Assembly (NCBI GenBank): GCA_016184365.1 | Contig: JACPCW010000075.1 | Span: forward strand, 81,617-145,616 | Length of the DNA: 64,000 bases | Direction: 5' to 3' | Source of the DNA: Candidatus Rokuibacteriota bacterium | GTDB taxonomy: Bacteria > Methylomirabilota > Methylomirabilia > Rokubacteriales > CSP1-6 | Part shown: piece after piece, positions 2,947-41,520 of the stretch | How the letters are laid out: every line of letters begins with the position of its first letter | How positions within the stretch are numbered: position 1 is the first letter of the stretch | Made by a program: the position numbers and the translations under genes | The notes under the pieces: model-generated | What the model saw: only the letters and a program-made list of their open reading frames with translations | Told to the model about the DNA's origin: nothing | The model's database searches: none

Positions 2947-3707
2947 CCCGCCTCGTCATCACCAGCTACAACATCCACCGCGGCGTCGGGCTCGACCGCC
3001 GCCGCGATCTCGACCGCATCGCCGCGGTCATCGCCGAGACGGGCGCCGACGTGATCGGCCTCCAGGAAGTGATCGCCGACAACGGCGCGGACCACCTGAA
3101 CCAGGGCGCGTACATCGCGTCGAAGCTCGGCATGCATGTCGTGATGGGCGAGACGCGCGAGCTGGCCGGCGGCGCGCTGTACGGCAACGCGGTGCTCAGC
3201 CGTCTCCCGGTCCTCGGGTTCTCGCGCTGCGACCTGTCGTGGCGCGCGCGCGAGCCGCGCGGATGCGTGCGCGTCGATCTCGGCATCCACGGCACGTCGG
3301 TCCACGTGTTCAACTGCCACTTCGGACTGGCGCTCCGCGAGCGCCGCGATCAGTTCCACCTCCTCGCGCGCTTCATCAAGGACTCGGCGAGCCTCGCCGG
3401 ACCGCGCGTGTTGATGGGCGACTTCAACGAGTGGCACACGGGGCCGATCACGCGCGGGTTGAAGCGCGAGTTCTCGTCGCCCATGCGCTTCATGCGCCGG
3501 ACGCATCCGTCGTGGTTTCCGCTCTTCGCCCTCGACCGGATCTACTGGGACGTGGAGCTGGAAGGGCAGGAGTTCCACGTGCACCGGAGCAAGCTCGCCC
3601 GCCTCGCCTCCGACCATCTGCCGGTCGTGGTGACGATGCGCGTGCGGCATCCCGTCGCGCACGCCGTGCCGTACCTGGTCGGCGACGCGCTGCCGCCGCC
3701 GGAGTAG
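2943..3707 (+). CDS. endonuclease/exonuclease/phosphatase (EEP) family protein
   Basis: Translation VTRLVITSYNIHRG…GLQEV…GDFNEWH…SDHLPVV carries typical EEP motifs. The GTG start overlaps the upstream TGA (GTGA). Confidence 0.75.
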   Translation: MTRLVITSYNIHRGVGLDRRRDLDRIAAVIAETGADVIGLQEVIADNGADHLNQGAYIASKLGMHVVMGETRELAGGALYGNAVLSRLPVLGFSRCDLSWRAREPRGCVRVDLGIHGTSVHVFNCHFGLALRERRDQFHLLARFIKDSASLAGPRVLMGDFNEWHTGPITRGLKREFSSPMRFMRRTHPSWFPLFALDRIYWDVELEGQEFHVHRSKLARLASDHLPVVVTMRVRHPVAHAVPYLVGDALPPPE

Positions 3708-3734
3708 CCGGGCGCCGCCGCCCTGACCTTCTAC

Positions 3735-4895
3735 ATGGACCGCTACGAGGTGACCGGCGCGCAGTTCGAGCGGTTCGTGCGCGTGACCGGGCATCGGACG
3801 ACTGCGGAGCGCGAGGGGTGGGGGTGGGTGTGGCGGCAAAAGGACGGCGCATGGCAGTCGGTGAAGGTCGATGGGGCCGACTGGGGGAAACCGAACGGTC
3901 CCGGATCCTGGAGCGAAGCGAAGCATCCGGTGGTCCAGGTGTCGTGGCATGACGCGGATGCGTATTGCCGCTGGGCGGGGAAGCGGCTGCCGACCGAGGC
4001 CGAGTGGGAGAAGGCGGCGCGCGGCACGGATGGCCGGCGCTACCCGTGGGGCGACGCGTGGGATGAGACGAGAGTCGGAGACTGGAAGAACGACCGCACC
4101 CATGCCGTCGGCTCAGCGACGCGAGGCGTGAGCCCGTACGACGTGCACGATATGGCGGGGAACGTCTGGGAGTGGGTCGCGGACTGGTTCCACGAGGACT
4201 ATTACACGCATCGCGCGCTCGACCGCTGCCAGGCGCTCATGCGCTGCCATCCGTACGTGCTGAAGTCCGACGTCTCGAAGTTCTTTCCGAGCGTCGACCA
4301 CGAGATCCTCGACGCGCTGCTCACGAAGCGTGTCCGTTGCGCGCGCACGCGGCAGCTGATGCGGTCGATCCTCGCGAGCGGCGCCGGCATTCTTGCCGAC
4401 GAGTACCGGATGACGTGGTTCCCCGGCGACACGCTGCCGAGCCCGCTCGACCGCCCGCGCGGCTTGCCGATCGGCAACCTCACGAGCCAGTTCTGGGCGA
4501 ACGTGTACCTGCACGAGCTGGACGGCTTCGTCGTCCGTCGGCTCGGCCGGGACGCTTACTTGAGATACGTCGACGATTTCCTGGTCTTCGGCCACACCAA
4601 GGCCGAGCTGCACGAGGTGCGAGCCCAGATCGAGGCGTTCCTCGTCGGGCTCCGGCTGACGGTGCATCCGACGAAGACACGCGTCTGCCCCGTCGCCGCC
4701 GGAGTGCCGTTTCTGGGCTTCGTCCTCCGCCCCGGCCGAGTCCGGCTCAAGCGCGAGTCTGTCCGCCGGTTCACCCGCCGGATGCGGCGTGCTCGCCGCG
4801 CGCTCGTCGAGCGCGCGCTGACCGTCGAACGGCTGAGCGCGTCGGTGAGGAGTTGGATCGCGCACGCCGCGTACGGTCAAACCTACCGGCTGTGA
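3735..4895 (+). CDS. chimeric ORF: an FGE/SUMF1-like (C-type lectin fold) fragment fused in frame to a DGR-type reverse transcriptase lacking its N-terminal motifs
   Basis: About 160 N-terminal aa have FGE-fold motifs ([17 protein letters not shown], [34 protein letters not shown], [10 protein letters not shown]). The remainder has RT motifs: [26 protein letters not shown] (the SQ variant typical of DGR RTs), [26 protein letters not shown] and a C-terminal [12 protein letters not shown]. Confidence 0.55.
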
Positions 4896-4942
4896 TCCGC
4901 GGTGATCGGCGAATTCGTGTTCGGCGATGGCCGGTGAGCAGG

Positions 4943-5299
4943 ATGAGCCTGGAGTCGCCGGTCTTCGTCAAGACGTACGACCTCCTGCGGTGGGTGCTGC
5001 CGTCCACGGCGAAGTTTCCGAAGCAGCAGCGCTTCGTCCTCGCGCGCCAGATCGAGGACGCGGCGTTCGCGCTTCATCGCGCGATGCTTCGCGCGGCGCG
5101 GGAGCCCGGGCCGTCGCTGCGCGAGGCCGATCTCGAGCTCGCCGCGCTGCGGACCTACCTGCGGCTGGCGTGCGAGCTGAAGTTCTATTCGGTCAACCAG
5201 TACGAGCACGCCGCGCGTCTCACCGGCGAGATCGGGCGGCTGATCGGCGGCTGGACGCGGTCATTGACGGCACCAACGGCCTCCCGTGGCCGCTCTTGA
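4943..5299 (+). CDS. avd: Avd-like accessory variability determinant (four-helix-bundle protein family)
   Basis: 119 aa: MSLESPVFVKTYDLLRWVLPSTAKFPKQQRFVLARQIEDAA…, resembling the four-helix-bundle (23S rRNA-intervening-sequence protein) family to which DGR Avd proteins belong. It lies directly downstream of the RT. Confidence 0.55.
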   Translation: MSLESPVFVKTYDLLRWVLPSTAKFPKQQRFVLARQIEDAAFALHRAMLRAAREPGPSLREADLELAALRTYLRLACELKFYSVNQYEHAARLTGEIGRLIGGWTRSLTAPTASRGRS

Positions 5300-5334: not shown

Positions 5335-5646
5335 ATGAGAGCAGTCGGCCTCAAGGTCTTGAAGAACAAGCTGAGCGAGTACGTGCGGCTCGCGCAAGGA
5401 GGCGAAACGATCCTGGTCACCGACCGTGACCGCGTCGTCGCCGAGCTCGTGCCGCCTCGGCCCGGCCGCGGTGAACTGGTCACGGACGCCGTGATCGCGG
5501 AGCTGGTGCGAAACGGCTGGGTGACCCCGGCGTCCGCGCCGCGCGGCGGTCCACCTCCTCGCAGACCGGTGGCGCGGTTCGATGACCTCATGCGGGAACT
5601 CGACGCGGACCGGGCCGACCGGTGGTCTACCTCGACGCCTCGGTAG
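5335..5646 (+). CDS. type II antitoxin, Phd/YefM (prevent-host-death) family
   Basis: MRAVGLKVLKNKLSEYVRLAQGGETILVTDRDRVVAELVP is the antitoxin consensus. It overlaps the downstream PIN gene. Confidence 0.7.
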   Translation: MRAVGLKVLKNKLSEYVRLAQGGETILVTDRDRVVAELVPPRPGRGELVTDAVIAELVRNGWVTPASAPRGGPPPRRPVARFDDLMRELDADRADRWSTSTPR

Positions 5647-6008
5647 CGCTCGCGCACATCTTCGCCGAGGACCGGGTGCCGCCGGGAGCCCTCTGGGACG
5701 AATCGTTGATCGCGAGCCGCCTGATCCAGTACGAGATCTGGACGCGCGTGCATGCTCGCGGAATCGAGCGGTCGCACGGTGACGAGGTCCGGGCGCTGCT
5801 GGAGCGTGTCGCGCTCGTGGAGATGACGCCGCTCGTTCTGGCGAGAGCCGCCGAACCGTTCCCGTTGCCGGTCCGCACGCTCGATGCACTGCACCTCGCC
5901 ACGGTGGAATTCCTCCGCGGCCGCGGCCAGGCGCTCGAGCTGGCGACCTACGACGACCGCATGCTCGCAGGCGCGCGGGCGCTCGGGATTCCCGTCCGGC
6001 CGCTCTGA
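5622..6008 (+). CDS. vapC: PIN-domain toxin VapC
   Basis: VYLDASVALA…RTLDALHLAT…ATYDDRM with a GTG start and a 25-nt overlap with the antitoxin gene. Confidence 0.75.
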   Translation: MVYLDASVALAHIFAEDRVPPGALWDESLIASRLIQYEIWTRVHARGIERSHGDEVRALLERVALVEMTPLVLARAAEPFPLPVRTLDALHLATVEFLRGRGQALELATYDDRMLAGARALGIPVRPL

Positions 6009-6042
6009 CGGATATGGAACCTCGCGAGGCCGACCGGCAGCG

Positions 6043-7266
6043 TCAGGCCAGGCCAGCGAGCTCCAGCGCTGCGCCGAGCAGCGTGTTGGCGCCGTGCTCG
6101 ATTTCGTCCATGCCCGTGAACTCTTCCTCGCAGTGGCTGCGCCCCGCGCGCGACGGCACGAAGATCATGCCGGCCGGCCCGATCGCCGCCATGTACTGGG
6201 CGTCGTGGCCCGCGCCGGACAGGATGCGCCGGTACGGCGCGCCCGTCGCGCGCGCCGCCCGCTCCACGGCCGCGACGACGTCGGCGGCGAACGGCGTGTA
6301 CGGCACGCGCCAGTAGTGCTCGAGCTCGTAGCGCACGCCCTCGCGCCCGCAGGCCTCGGCCACGACGCGGTCGAGCAGCGGCATCGCGCGATCGAGCGTC
6401 GCATCGCGCGGGTCGCGCATGTCGATGGACATCGTCACGCGGCCGGGAATGGCGTTGACGATGTTCGGATGCACGGTGAGGTTGCCGACGGTCGTGACGA
6501 CGTCCCCGCCGATCTCGCGCGCGATCCGCCGCACACCGCTCACGACCTCCGCGGCGGCGACGAGGGCGTCGTGGCGGATGCGCATCGGCGTCGGGCCGGC
6601 GTGGTCTTGCACGCCGTGGATCGTGAGCCGCGACCACGCGATCGCGACGATGCCCTCGACGACCCCGACCGACCGGCCTTCCTCTTCGAGGAACGGCCCC
6701 TGCTCGATGTGGAGCTCGAGATACGCGCGGAACGCCCGGGGGACGCAGGGCTCCGGGCCGAGATAGCCGATGCGCTCCAGCTCGTCGACCAGCCGGATGC
6801 CGTCCTTGTCGCGGGCGTTGTAGGCGTCTTCGAGCGCGATCTTGCCCGCCATGACCCCGCTCGCGATCATCGCGGGCTGGAACCGCGCGCCCTCTTCGTT
6901 GGTGAAGATCCCCAGCACCACGGGGTGCCGGGTCCGCACGTCGTGGTCGTTGAGCGTGCGGACCACTTCGAGCCCGCACATGACGCCGAGCTGGCCGTCG
7001 TACTTGCCGCCGGTCGGCACGGAGTCGATGTGCGAGCCCATCATGACGGGCGCGACGCGCTCCGTGCCGGGACGCTCGCCGAAGATGTTGCCCATCTGGT
7101 CCACCGACACGCGGAGCCCGACCGCGCGCATCCAGGCGACCATCTGGTCGCGGCCGCGCTTGTCCTCATCGGTCAGGGCCACGCGCGTCAGGCCGCCACG
7201 CGGTGTCTCGCCAATCCGGCCCATCTCGTCCATGGTGCGCTCGAGCCGCGTCCGATCGATCTTCAC
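6043..7266 (-). CDS. Zn-dependent amidohydrolase, M20 family (allantoate amidohydrolase / N-carbamoyl-L-amino-acid hydrolase type)
   Basis: The C-terminal 408 aa of ORF 6043..8493 (VKIDRTRLERTMDEMGRIGE…GSHIDSVPTGGKYDG…) match this family. GTG start with GAAGG upstream; the rest of the long ORF is an artefactual extension. Confidence 0.75.
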   Translation of the reverse strand: MKIDRTRLERTMDEMGRIGETPRGGLTRVALTDEDKRGRDQMVAWMRAVGLRVSVDQMGNIFGERPGTERVAPVMMGSHIDSVPTGGKYDGQLGVMCGLEVVRTLNDHDVRTRHPVVLGIFTNEEGARFQPAMIASGVMAGKIALEDAYNARDKDGIRLVDELERIGYLGPEPCVPRAFRAYLELHIEQGPFLEEEGRSVGVVEGIVAIAWSRLTIHGVQDHAGPTPMRIRHDALVAAAEVVSGVRRIAREIGGDVVTTVGNLTVHPNIVNAIPGRVTMSIDMRDPRDATLDRAMPLLDRVVAEACGREGVRYELEHYWRVPYTPFAADVVAAVERAARATGAPYRRILSGAGHDAQYMAAIGPAGMIFVPSRAGRSHCEEEFTGMDEIEHGANTLLGAALELAGLA

Positions 7267-7841
7267 GGTGAGGCGCCTTCGGACGCCGTCTCCGCGCGCC
7301 GGCGCACTGACCTGATCGCGTGCCACCAGTACGCCGCGGCGATGCCGATCATGAGCAGGGCGCAGAACGAGACGAAGACGACGTTGAACGGCCGCGCGAT
7401 GAAGGCGGGCAGCGGCACGGCGATCGGGCCGACGCCGAGCATGGCGGAGTCGCCGGCGTTGCCCGTCGCCAGGACCCACACGAGGAACGCGGCCGTCGAC
7501 GTGACGAAGATCAATCCGGCCGCATAGCCGAGCGCGTTCCAGACCCAGGCGCCGAGACCGAGCGCCGAGAGCAGGATCCCGGCGCCGAGGAGGACGAACG
7601 GAATCACGAGCACGGCGGCCAGGAGCCGCGGCACGTGAATCTCGGAATCCGGCGTCTCGATGACGTTCACGGCCCGAAGAAACGGGACGAGCCCCATGGC
7701 CGTGACGGCGAGACCGATCGCGGCGGCGCCGGCGCGGCCGCGCGACGTGATCGCGACGGGCATCCGATTGCCGGGGCGTGGCAGGCGCGCCCGCGCACCC
7801 TGTGCGAATCTGCGAGCGGAAGATCGTCGCGCGTCGGTCAT
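7263..7841 (-). CDS. hypothetical integral membrane protein
   Basis: ORF with several hydrophobic helices. It overlaps the amidohydrolase start by 4 nt. The start codon is uncertain. Confidence 0.4.
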   Translation of the reverse strand: MTDARRSSARRFAQGARARLPRPGNRMPVAITSRGRAGAAAIGLAVTAMGLVPFLRAVNVIETPDSEIHVPRLLAAVLVIPFVLLGAGILLSALGLGAWVWNALGYAAGLIFVTSTAAFLVWVLATGNAGDSAMLGVGPIAVPLPAFIARPFNVVFVSFCALLMIGIAAAYWWHAIRSVRRRAETASEGASP

Positions 7842-9430: not shown

Positions 9431-10162
9431 TTACCGCGGGTAGAGGAGGAAGTGCAAGCCCATCACGATCAGCAGCGCCTCGATCACGTGGAGGAAGACG
9501 CGGTCGCTCATGCGGTCGAGCAGCCGTCGGCCGAGCCACGAGCCCGCGAACATGGTGCCGCCGAGCACGCATCCGATCGCGATCGTGTCCCACGTGAGCA
9601 GCGCGTAGCGGGTCAGCACGACGCCGCGCGTGAGGTGCATGCCGAACGCGCAGACCGCCTCGGTCGCGATGTAGGCGCCGCGCCGGAGGCCGTAGGCGAG
9701 AAAGAACGGTGTCACCACGGGGCCCGTGGCCACGACGAGCGACGACAGGAACCCGAAGACCGCGCCGATGATCGGGAAGTGGCGCAGCCGGACCTGCACG
9801 ATCGGCGTGAACAGAAATCGGCGCAGCGGCACCGACGCGAGCAGGAAGGCGCCGATCACGAGCGACAGCGCGGTGGTCGGCGTGCCGGCGTAGAGCACCG
9901 CCCCGAGCGCCGTCGCGGGAACCGCGCCGGCGAGGAAGCGGACGCTCGCCGCGCGATCGACCTCGCCGCGGCTCCACCAGAGGCGCGAGAGATTCCCGAC
10001 GAGCATCGTGACCGTCAGAACGGGAACCGCGGCGCGCAGCCCGAGCGTCCAGGCGACGACCGGCAGCAGCACGACACCGGCGCCGAACCCGGCGACCCCG
10101 CCCAGGATCGACGCGGCGAGCGCCGTGCCGAGCAGGACCAGCCAGCCGAACGTGTCAGGCAC
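9431..10162 (-). CDS. TauE/SafE family sulfite/anion exporter (DUF81) membrane protein
   Basis: Polytopic membrane protein with glycine-rich helices typical of TauE/SafE. Confidence 0.65.
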   Translation of the reverse strand: MPDTFGWLVLLGTALAASILGGVAGFGAGVVLLPVVAWTLGLRAAVPVLTVTMLVGNLSRLWWSRGEVDRAASVRFLAGAVPATALGAVLYAGTPTTALSLVIGAFLLASVPLRRFLFTPIVQVRLRHFPIIGAVFGFLSSLVVATGPVVTPFFLAYGLRRGAYIATEAVCAFGMHLTRGVVLTRYALLTWDTIAIGCVLGGTMFAGSWLGRRLLDRMSDRVFLHVIEALLIVMGLHFLLYPR

Positions 10163-39046: not shown

Positions 39047-40060
<1,014 letters not shown>

Positions 40061-40074
40061 CCCGGGAGGGTCCG

Positions 40075-41520
40075 ATGTCGCACACCGAAGCGCTTGACCG
40101 GCTCGTACGCCAGGTCGTGAGCCAGGTGCGGTGGCGGCGGGCGGAGCACTACGCGCTCCGCGGGCTCTTCTGGGGCCTCGTCGTCGCCGTCGTGCTGCTG
40201 CTCGTGAAAGGACCGCTCGCCGTCTGGGCGGCTCCGTTCGGCATCGCGGCGATCGCCGCCGGTGCGCTCGGCGGTCTGCTCTACGGCTTCGTCCGGCGCG
40301 TCGGTCCGCTCGACGCCGCGCGCCTCGCGGACCGCGCGTTCGGCCTCGCCGACCGCGTGACGACGGCGCTCGAGTGCGCGAAGCGACCCGAGGCCGGTCC
40401 GATGATCCAGTCCCTGCTCGCGGATGCGGGCGCGCGCGTCGGGCAGCTGAAGATCAGGCAGATCGTCCGGCGCGTCGTGCCGCGCGAGGCGAAGCTGCTG
40501 CCGGTACCGCTGATCGCCGCGGTCGTGCTCGCGCTCGCGCCGCCGGTGCCGATGCCGTCCGGCCGGCTGTTCGACACCACGGCGTCGACGGCGGAAGACG
40601 AGACCAAGGAGCGGGTCGCGTCGACGATGCTCGAAGACCGGGCGCGGCCGATGCCGCGCGACCCGATGCGGCGGCCGTCGTTCGAGGAGCGGGACTACAT
40701 GCAGCGCGGCGCGTCCGGCGCGCCGTCCGCGCAGGGCGACCTCGCCGCGATCTTCAAGGACACGTCGCTCGCGAGCCAGCGGCCGGACTTCAACAGCTTC
40801 CTCAAGAAGGGCGACGAGCGTCTCAAGATGCTCGAGCAGGTCGACCGTCTGCCGGACCTCCAGTCCGACTTCACCCAGAGCCAGTACAAGATGGTCTTCC
40901 GCAAGTCGAAGGCGCTCCGCGGCGGCATGCGTCCGGATCAGATCTCGCCCGACAAGCTGCGCGAGCTGCTGCAGGAGATGGAGCGGCTCGGGCGCAAGGG
41001 CAATCAGAACTGGTCGCAGGACGCGATGGAAGGCATGGACGCGCTCGAGGGCGGCAACCAGGACAAGGCGCTCGAGGCGATGGAGAAGGCGCTCAACAAG
41101 ATGCGCGCCTCCGAGGAAGCGAGGCGCTCGGGCAAGAACCTGCGCGGCGGGAAAGACGATCGCGCGAGCCGCGGCGACGGGACGCGCGGCAGCGGCGGCC
41201 CCGAGGACCAGGACTTCGGCGAGGGCGAAGGCATGATGCCCGGCAAGGGCCGCAGCCCGTCACCGAAGGGCGACGCCACGCAGCGCCTGCGCGCGAATCC
41301 GTTCGACGCCGGCGTCGAAGGCGAATCGCGCCGCGGTCGCAAGGACGGCTACGACACGAACATGACCGGCCGCGGCGGCAAGATGGAATCGCGGATGCAG
41401 TACCTCGGCGTCATCGGCCAGTACCGCAAGATGATGGAGGACTCGATCGCGCGCGAGCAGGTGCCTCGCGACTTCCACGGCCAGATCAAGGACTACTTCC
41501 AGTCGCTGGACGAGCGCTAG
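40075..41520 (+). CDS. hypothetical membrane-anchored, charged/coiled-coil protein in the MoxR operon
   Basis: N-terminal TM helices followed by a low-complexity, K/E/R-rich region. Confidence 0.45.
   Translation: MSHTEALDRLVRQVVSQVRWRRAEHYALRGLFWGLVVAVVLLLVKGPLAVWAAPFGIAAIAAGALGGLLYGFVRRVGPLDAARLADRAFGLADRVTTALECAKRPEAGPMIQSLLADAGARVGQLKIRQIVRRVVPREAKLLPVPLIAAVVLALAPPVPMPSGRLFDTTASTAEDETKERVASTMLEDRARPMPRDPMRRPSFEERDYMQRGASGAPSAQGDLAAIFKDTSLASQRPDFNSFLKKGDERLKMLEQVDRLPDLQSDFTQSQYKMVFRKSKALRGGMRPDQISPDKLRELLQEMERLGRKGNQNWSQDAMEGMDALEGGNQDKALEAMEKALNKMRASEEARRSGKNLRGGKDDRASRGDGTRGSGGPEDQDFGEGEGMMPGKGRSPSPKGDATQRLRANPFDAGVEGESRRGRKDGYDTNMTGRGGKMESRMQYLGVIGQYRKMMEDSIAREQVPRDFHGQIKDYFQSLDER

Follow-up and report, generated by a model that had tools for sequence, protein, structure and literature searches.

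The open reading frame (ORF) at positions 3735-4895 of the 64,000-nucleotide stretch of Candidatus Rokuibacteriota DNA analysed here (assembly GCA_016184365.1, contig JACPCW010000075.1; the whole stretch is called the window) joins, in frame, a central part of an FGE/C-type-lectin domain to a piece of a reverse transcriptase (RT) from the clade of diversity-generating retroelements (DGRs), which are bacterial hypermutation cassettes. With a probability of roughly 0.86, the locus is a dead, partly deleted DGR, with the ORF as a fusion pseudogene and the accessory gene avd (accessory variability determinant) as an orphan. This is ordinary gene decay and no new kind of system. In a working DGR, a complex of RT and Avd copies the RNA of a template repeat (TR) into cDNA with misincorporation opposite adenines, and the cDNA replaces the variable region (VR) of the target gene, which diversifies the ligand-binding face of a lectin fold. 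As the window copy possesses neither VR nor TR nor the RT fingers, mutagenic retrohoming would be impossible.

Domain content and class of the fused protein

The 386-aa product matches the FGE-sulfatase profile with residues 1-176 (profile positions 39-217 of 255, E 1.6e-42) and the RVT_1 profile with residues 163-330 (profile positions 58-204 of 205, E 4.2e-15; both Pfam). The in-frame chimera of an FGE/C-type-lectin fragment and a DGR-type RT, which the original prediction had read from the letters alone, is thus borne out on both halves, by Pfam as well as by tblastn (E 5e-71 and 4e-102, detailed below), at a level that chance comes nowhere near. The FGE fold had been described as its N-terminal two-thirds; the fold is right and the position is not, since the middle of the domain is present and about 38 N-terminal profile positions are missing.

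In GenBank, the fused protein is annotated as a "SUMF1/EgtB/PvdO family nonheme iron enzyme" of a Candidatus Rokubacteria metagenome-assembled genome. Its first 160 residues do resemble FGE/SUMF1/EgtB enzymes (Pfam E 1.6e-42; FGEs in the PDB, E about 1e-29), but the domain is partial, the closest homologues are DGR targets and not enzymes, and the remainder is an RT fragment. The SenA, EgtB, PvdO and OvoA models of NCBIfam reach only 29-78 bits versus cut-offs of 360-500. The public annotation is misleading and is to be corrected to a fusion pseudogene.

With group II intron and retron RTs the RT half shares general palm motifs, and its best NCBIfam RT model is group_II_RT_mat, but with 91.5 bits versus a cut-off of 300, while the St85 retron RT model reaches 43 bits versus 235; neither an intron RNA nor a retron RNA was found in the window with Rfam. 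The structure 8ub7_A, which we take to be the Bordetella phage DGR RT (its PDB name is merely "Reverse transcriptase"), is far closer, with E values of 6e-25 for the RT fragment (best group II RT 1e-11) and of 8e-60 for the RT from L001, an intact relative described below (best group II RT 7e-23). Of the two outcomes that the original prediction had named as speaking against it, a group II intron or retron RT in the C-terminal half and a non-FGE fold in the N-terminal half, neither was observed. The JGI name of the RT homologues, "retron-type reverse transcriptase", is generic and assigns them to no retron.

In a search of 5.8 billion proteins, for which the statements made here rest on the 120 matches listed, the fusion forms a singleton cluster known from one contig only. 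Besides the query and one other protein (P0029), all matches listed cover one half, either RT or FGE, never both; among them, the RT half has its closest relatives at 75-76% identity and the FGE half its closest one at 76%. P0029, the sole other protein with both Pfam domains, was rejected as a deletion fusion, as its frame simply reads on from a complete target into a complete RT. A true target-RT fusion was found in none of 80 metagenome loci.

Upstream of the ATG at 3735, no Shine-Dalgarno-like sequence lies within about 30 nt, and the ATG itself is a substituted Ile/Leu/Val codon, conserved in the motif FY(I/L/V)DRYEVT of the target relatives. A promoter and terminator scan returned nothing informative. 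We infer that the 386-aa ORF is a fusion pseudogene.

Lesions and breakpoints of the window copy

From 3726 to 5293, the window is collinear with the target, RT and Avd of three intact relatives (L001-L003) at 72-76% amino acid and about 75% nucleotide identity. This collinear homology over all retained parts points to descent from a bona fide DGR cassette, from which the window copy differs by at least three or four lesions, a left truncation, the fusion deletion, a nonsense codon in the RT and a separate right break with loss of the TR (Table 1).

Table 1. Features of the decayed locus, its neighbours and the conserved region following the TR in relatives (window positions unless a locus is named)
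Feature	Position	Strand	Description and basis
Left junction	3708..3725	+	15-18 nt from the TAG stop of the EEP gene (3705-3707) to the first target homology (3723-3726)
Target gene fragment	3726..4205	+	Residues 420-580 of the 636-aa target of L001; Pfam, tblastn, alignment of 15 homologues
Fusion ORF	3735-4895	+	386 aa, 386 codons; presence of the ORF confirmed
Deletion junction 4205/4206	4204..4207	+	Target residue 580 joined in frame to RT residue 114
RT fragment, DGR clade	4206..4892	+	Residues 114 to about 341 of 356; palm and thumb motifs kept
Premature TGA and RT tail remnant	4893..4942	+	TGA at 4893-4895; tail SAVIGEFVFGDGR and stop in frame
avd	4943..5299	+	Intact, 118 aa; NCBIfam, Pfam
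Right junction	5290..5297	+	Family homology ends at about 5293, about 25 nt short of the TR start in relatives
Phd/YefM-like antitoxin	5335-5625	+	Pfam; neighbour, outside the DGR
PIN toxin	5622-6008	+	Pfam; neighbour, outside the DGR
Region of about 165 nt after the TR	L001 6153-6320; L002 9560-9730; L003 9066-9235; L004 1341-1500		

On the left side, the EEP-family gene is complete, its C-terminus …GDALPPPE and stop being kept at the syntenic loci of other species, and homology to target genes opens at F-Y-(I/M)-D-R-Y-E-V-T. The tblastn match of the L001 target to the retained fragment has 72% identity (E 5e-71). What is left of the FGE domain corresponds to Pfam positions 39 to about 200 of 255. 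Gone are the signal peptide, the caspase domain (Peptidase_C14), the PEGA domain, about 38 positions at the start of the FGE domain, its C-terminal strands and the VR.

Alignment to intact homologues places the fusion break, for which a junction at 4190-4215 had been indicated, exactly at 4205/4206, where the protein reads …EDYY/THRALDRCQ…. The target loses its last 56 codons, which include the VR, and its stop codon, and the RT loses its first 113 codons; together with the spacer between the two genes, this makes about 561 nt in L001 coordinates. The microhomology amounts to at most 2 nt (CA). The VR of the relatives does not begin until about 50 nt (17 codons) past this break, which contradicts the claim that the fold stops exactly where a VR would begin. 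As the TR is situated downstream of avd in the relatives, the fusion deletion took the VR, not the TR. The original prediction of one deletion removing both consequently holds for the VR, while the TR was lost at a separate breakpoint at about 5293, and several lesions stand in place of one.

Residues 114-353 of an intact relative's RT align to window positions 4206-4925 (tblastn, E 4e-102). Having lost residues 1-113, the fragment retains the motif with the first catalytic Asp, IGNLTSQ, YVDD, HPTKT and FLGF; the reported motifs IGNLTSQ, YVDD, HPTKT and LGF are indeed present, but the gap at the front, given before as motifs 0/1, includes both finger motifs 1-2. The codon replaced by the premature TGA encodes Arg in 10/10 relatives, and the RT tail past it is still recognizable and carries a 3-codon (9-nt) insertion. 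The intact avd, which had been overlooked, follows. Its product scores 89 bits with DivGenRetAVD versus a cut-off of 80 (NCBIfam) and E 2.7e-21 with bAvd (Pfam), is 67-73% identical to the Avd proteins of L001-L003 and has no match when its sequence is compared with solved structures. The last two codons and the stop of avd lie beyond the right breakpoint at about 5293, to which collinear nucleotide homology with L001-L003 continues and past which there is neither a TR nor the conserved structured region (about 165 nt) that the relatives examined have 3' of it.

Compared with a functional DGR, the locus therefore has an accessory gene adjoining the RT (avd, where others have an HRDC-type gene), but no complete RT with motifs 1-7 (residues 1-113 deleted, tail ended by TGA), no TR/VR pair differing at TR adenines within the 64 kb, and no target with a VR at the C-terminus of a lectin/FGE or Ig-like fold (56 C-terminal codons deleted).

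The lost pieces are not present elsewhere in the window. No TR- or VR-like sequence exists anywhere in the 64 kb, neither a caspase domain nor an RT N-terminus is found elsewhere in it, and tblastn and blastn searches with the window halves and with intact relatives gave nothing credible as a paralogous intact cassette or as lost pieces. Repeats of the TR/VR type, looked for over distances up to 12 kb, are only short GC-rich chance repeats, and Rfam families were found neither in the window nor in four relatives. A weak FGE-like match at 40722-40937 on the minus strand is without an ORF and a match to the TR end with three mismatches at 39503-39522 lies inside a MoxR-type ATPase gene; both were dismissed as chance. 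The search for an intact cassette with TR and VR, as suggested with the original prediction, is accordingly negative for the window and positive for relatives, where seven intact loci were found, six of them checked for TR and VR.

A cassette family of Rokubacteria and Methylomirabilota

The relatives are contigs fetched for the best protein matches, mostly from Rokubacteria/Methylomirabilota. Seven distinct loci possess the order target, RT, Avd (L001, L002, L003, L085, L086, L087 and L089; L088, a duplicate of L087 from another sample, is not counted), with a cassette layout of a target ending in a 111-nt VR, RT, Avd and a 111-nt TR. In all six loci checked, that is all except L089, the VR is at the 3' end of the target and the TR just after avd. 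The targets combine a protease domain (Peptidase_C14/caspase or trypsin-like) with FGE-sulfatase, in L001 with PEGA in between; the RT gene of 355-356 codons lies 50-90 nt downstream of the target and avd overlaps or abuts the RT stop codon. Two apparently short targets were rejected as such, P0026 of L004, the gene of which is cut by the contig end, and the "221-aa" target of L003, which continues upstream.

The TR of the six checked loci contains 30 adenines in its 111 nt and 10-12 AAC codons. Mismatches between TR and VR fall on TR adenines in 20/21, 14/14, 13/15, 18/19, 18/19, 16/19 and 20/20 cases. By these sequence features, the intact relatives are bona fide DGRs. The TR is strongly conserved (consensus CGTCCTGCGCGGCGGNTCCTGGAACAACAACCCGATCAA…ATCGGGTTCCGCTGCGCGAG), with 91-95% identity across loci where the RT proteins share only about 77-80%. 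Past the TR, L001-L004, the four relatives inspected, have the conserved stretch of about 165 nt, which is full of stem-loops, with 53 predicted pairs, four of them with compensatory changes, and without a match in Rfam; it probably forms the priming/spacer segment of the DGR RNA.

Individual loci show additional features. The called avd ORF of 155-164 aa runs through the TR in L001 (5664-6155), L085 (7038-7505) and L086 (5919-6413), so that the TR is located inside a 3' extension of the avd reading frame. L085 (4102-13041) has three caspase-FGE targets for one RT-Avd-TR set, with VRs at 5787-5897 and 9808-9918 that are each different from the single TR at 18/19 adenine positions, and is neighboured by transglutaminase-like, GNA1162-like and DUF4384 genes, while TIR and CHAT genes neighbour L086 and L087. 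In L003, a DDE transposase (DUF772/DDE_Tnp_1) at 5904-7271 is inserted on the opposite strand between target/VR and RT in an otherwise complete cassette.

Two further members are deletion remnants independent of the window copy. At 735-1340 of L004, RT residues 1-161 run straight into the TR, with loss of the RT C-terminus and of avd; among the matches listed, its target is the closest relative of the window FGE fragment (76%), and 18/19 mismatches between its VR and TR are still at TR adenines. In L092 (948-1755), residues 136-204 are missing from within the RT and the frame is shifted, while target and avd are still on the 2.2-kb contig.

Genomic setting

A scan with the EEP protein of species-representative genomes recovered about 66 Rokubacteria/Methylomirabilota loci, one per species (L005-L071), which share the order acyl-CoA dehydrogenase, phosphodiesterase, EEP, gap, M20 (convergent), NUDIX, MaoC, TauE and MFS. 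The gap between EEP and M20 extends from 20 nt to 3.7 kb and is practically empty in seven species (20-73 nt). Several of the sampled gaps contain a gene for a 450-480-aa membrane protein, which in L059, the one scanned, has a CPBP/Rce1-like domain. No RT or Avd is found in the EEP-M20 gap across the approximately 66 syntenic loci, and a homologue of the Phd/YefM-PIN toxin-antitoxin pair, which in the window fills the rest of the gap up to the convergent M20 peptidase gene (stop at 6043), occupies the same position in 0/66. In GCA_016200085.1, the DGR (L002) and the EEP locus (L040) are on different contigs. With no RT or Avd in the other gaps and L002 off the EEP contig, the DGR cassette is without a conserved chromosomal position, and the remnant and the toxin-antitoxin pair are, by the gene orders compared, a lineage-specific occupant of a variable spot between EEP and M20.

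The proposal that the PIN gene of the window and a PIN gene beside the L001 cassette belong to a rearranged shared island was rejected, as the two show no homology. A foreign origin of the remnant finds no support in composition, its GC of 0.66-0.71 being equal to that of the flanks. Further upstream, a 50-nt direct repeat with 80% identity (58-107 and 1098-1147) in the acyl-CoA dehydrogenase-like region probably reflects two paralogous genes; two such matches are present also at syntenic loci.

Probable course and age of the decay

By the layout of the relatives, the ancestral cassette encoded, in this order, a secreted target of protease and FGE/C-type-lectin domain with VR, the RT and Avd, an A-rich TR and a structured 3' RNA, the lectin fold in this family being linked to a protease effector. 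In the window, the target has lost its front end after the EEP gene, and target codon 580 was brought onto RT codon 114 by an illegitimate deletion of about 561 nt, in frame by chance. A nonsense codon is present in the RT tail, and the sequence from about 25 nt before the TR onward is missing, where the toxin-antitoxin pair is found now.

Of 80 columns with 90% conservation or more in 64 full-length homologues, the window RT deviates at none, versus a mean of 2.0 for intact genes, and the FGE part deviates at 2/73 conserved columns versus a mean of 3.5 for other homologues; both values fall inside the spread seen for intact genes. The dN/dS of the RT is 0.20-0.23 between the window and intact copies and 0.17-0.20 among intact copies. 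The lack of excess damaging substitutions in the retained parts suggests that decay is recent, and the low number of deviations together with a dN/dS of about 0.2 suggests that most divergence accumulated under constraint; by themselves, these data are also compatible with continued selection. A near-identical intact allele of the window cassette was not found, the closest relatives being about 75% identical, and junction-specific and protein-guided scans of metagenome contigs gave neither an intact ancestor nor an independent copy of the junction (best 73% identical). The order, number and age of the events are for this reason deduced, not observed.

Alternative explanations

The fusion could be an assembly artefact, in which case the DGR of the organism would be intact, the assembler having linked pieces that are not neighbours or merged variants of the population. 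The sequence is indeed a metagenome-assembled genome and the fused protein is known from a single contig; an exact search of JGI metagenome contigs with the 36-nt junction gave no match and so no independent confirmation. However, the junction has no repeat common to target and RT by which a de Bruijn assembler might be fooled, the microhomology being at most 2 nt, and one mis-join could not produce four separate lesions, among which are a point nonsense codon and a 9-nt indel. As both flanks also pass without a break into the gene order shared by about 66 species and comparable deletions come from unrelated samples, an artefact is regarded as unlikely.

It is still harder to credit that the FGE fragment, the RT palm and thumb and the intact Avd were selected for a new function, for example in nucleic acid binding or regulation. 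The in-frame fusion, open over 386 codons and unusually clean, does have the look of a selected functional fusion, and the undisturbed conserved RT columns, the dN/dS of about 0.2 and the avd gene scoring above its curated cut-off can be read in the same way. But a deletion stays in frame with a chance of one in three, and the constraint signal is dominated by the long history shared before the deletion (dS about 0.8). Furthermore, the fusion is a singleton without a second example among the matches listed or the 80 metagenome loci, its lectin fold is cut at both ends, the RT is without fingers and has a nonsense codon in its tail, and the ATG, with no Shine-Dalgarno-like sequence near it, replaces a conserved Ile/Leu codon. 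Equally improbable is an active, unusually organized DGR, with TR, VR and possibly a second RT piece elsewhere, to which the locus supplies Avd or the RT part in trans. Other bacteria do have remote targets and degenerate loci for which a complete locus provides (PMC10907252), L085 combines one TR with two VR-bearing targets, and, with the view limited to 64 kb, another part of the genome could contain what is missing here or a second intact DGR. However, a split RT is seen in no relative, the target fragment has no VR to receive cDNA and the 64 kb hold no TR- or VR-like sequence. Polymerization needs RT motifs 1-2, without which the RT fragment would be unable to polymerize. The unusually organized working DGR, which the original prediction had left as an alternative to a decaying one, finds no support, while the decaying DGR with a target-RT deletion fusion is upheld by halves that are 72-76% identical to cassettes with Avd and an adenine-biased TR/VR.

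Relation to described systems

The family is like the BPP-1-type DGRs (bRT, bAvd, TR/VR, Mtd) in its RT clade with the hallmark I-G-x-x-x-S-Q motif, in the Avd four-helix-bundle accessory gene, in the C-type-lectin-type fold of the target and, in the window's relatives, in the adenine-specific differences between TR and VR. In contrast, the order is target, RT, avd, TR in the window's family and target, avd, TR, RT in the classic element, and the window copy is a remnant without VR, TR and RT residues 1-113.

DGR targets with caspase-like domains and degenerate loci have both already been described. Doré et al. 2024 (PMC10907252) reported DGRs by which putative antigen sensors of conflict systems are diversified, as well as loci termed "degenerate" with key DGR machinery missing or pseudogenized. 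The relatives resemble these conflict-system DGRs in their caspase- or trypsin-like protease with a C-terminal FGE/CLec VR and in their location beside TIR, CHAT and DUF4384 genes, and the window copy resembles the degenerate loci in its missing machinery (Doré et al. 2024, PMC10907252). Different are the lineage, here Rokubacteria/Methylomirabilota, and the mode of decay, with transposon activity emphasized there (Doré et al. 2024, PMC10907252) and clean internal deletions here (but L003 contains a DDE transposase). A literature search found no papers tying DGRs to Rokubacteria.

Implications

An inactivated and partly deleted DGR, as the locus is interpreted here, opens no new mechanistic question. 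Its practical consequence concerns surveys based on RT or Avd, for which remnants like the window copy are false positives. Going further, one might consider either an exapted fusion with Avd or, more broadly, DGRs that are switched off by recurrent, possibly RT-associated internal deletions, the window copy, L004 and L092 each lacking a different part of the RT. Such an extension is given a very small chance; if recurrent deletions were true, decay could be a regular life-cycle stage of Rokubacteria-type DGRs. With the interpretation as an inactivated remnant, the locus and its relatives document a DGR family of Rokubacteria/Methylomirabilota in which a protease-plus-lectin target is followed by RT, avd and TR, in this order, and the cassettes of which decay through clean internal deletions in several independent lineages.
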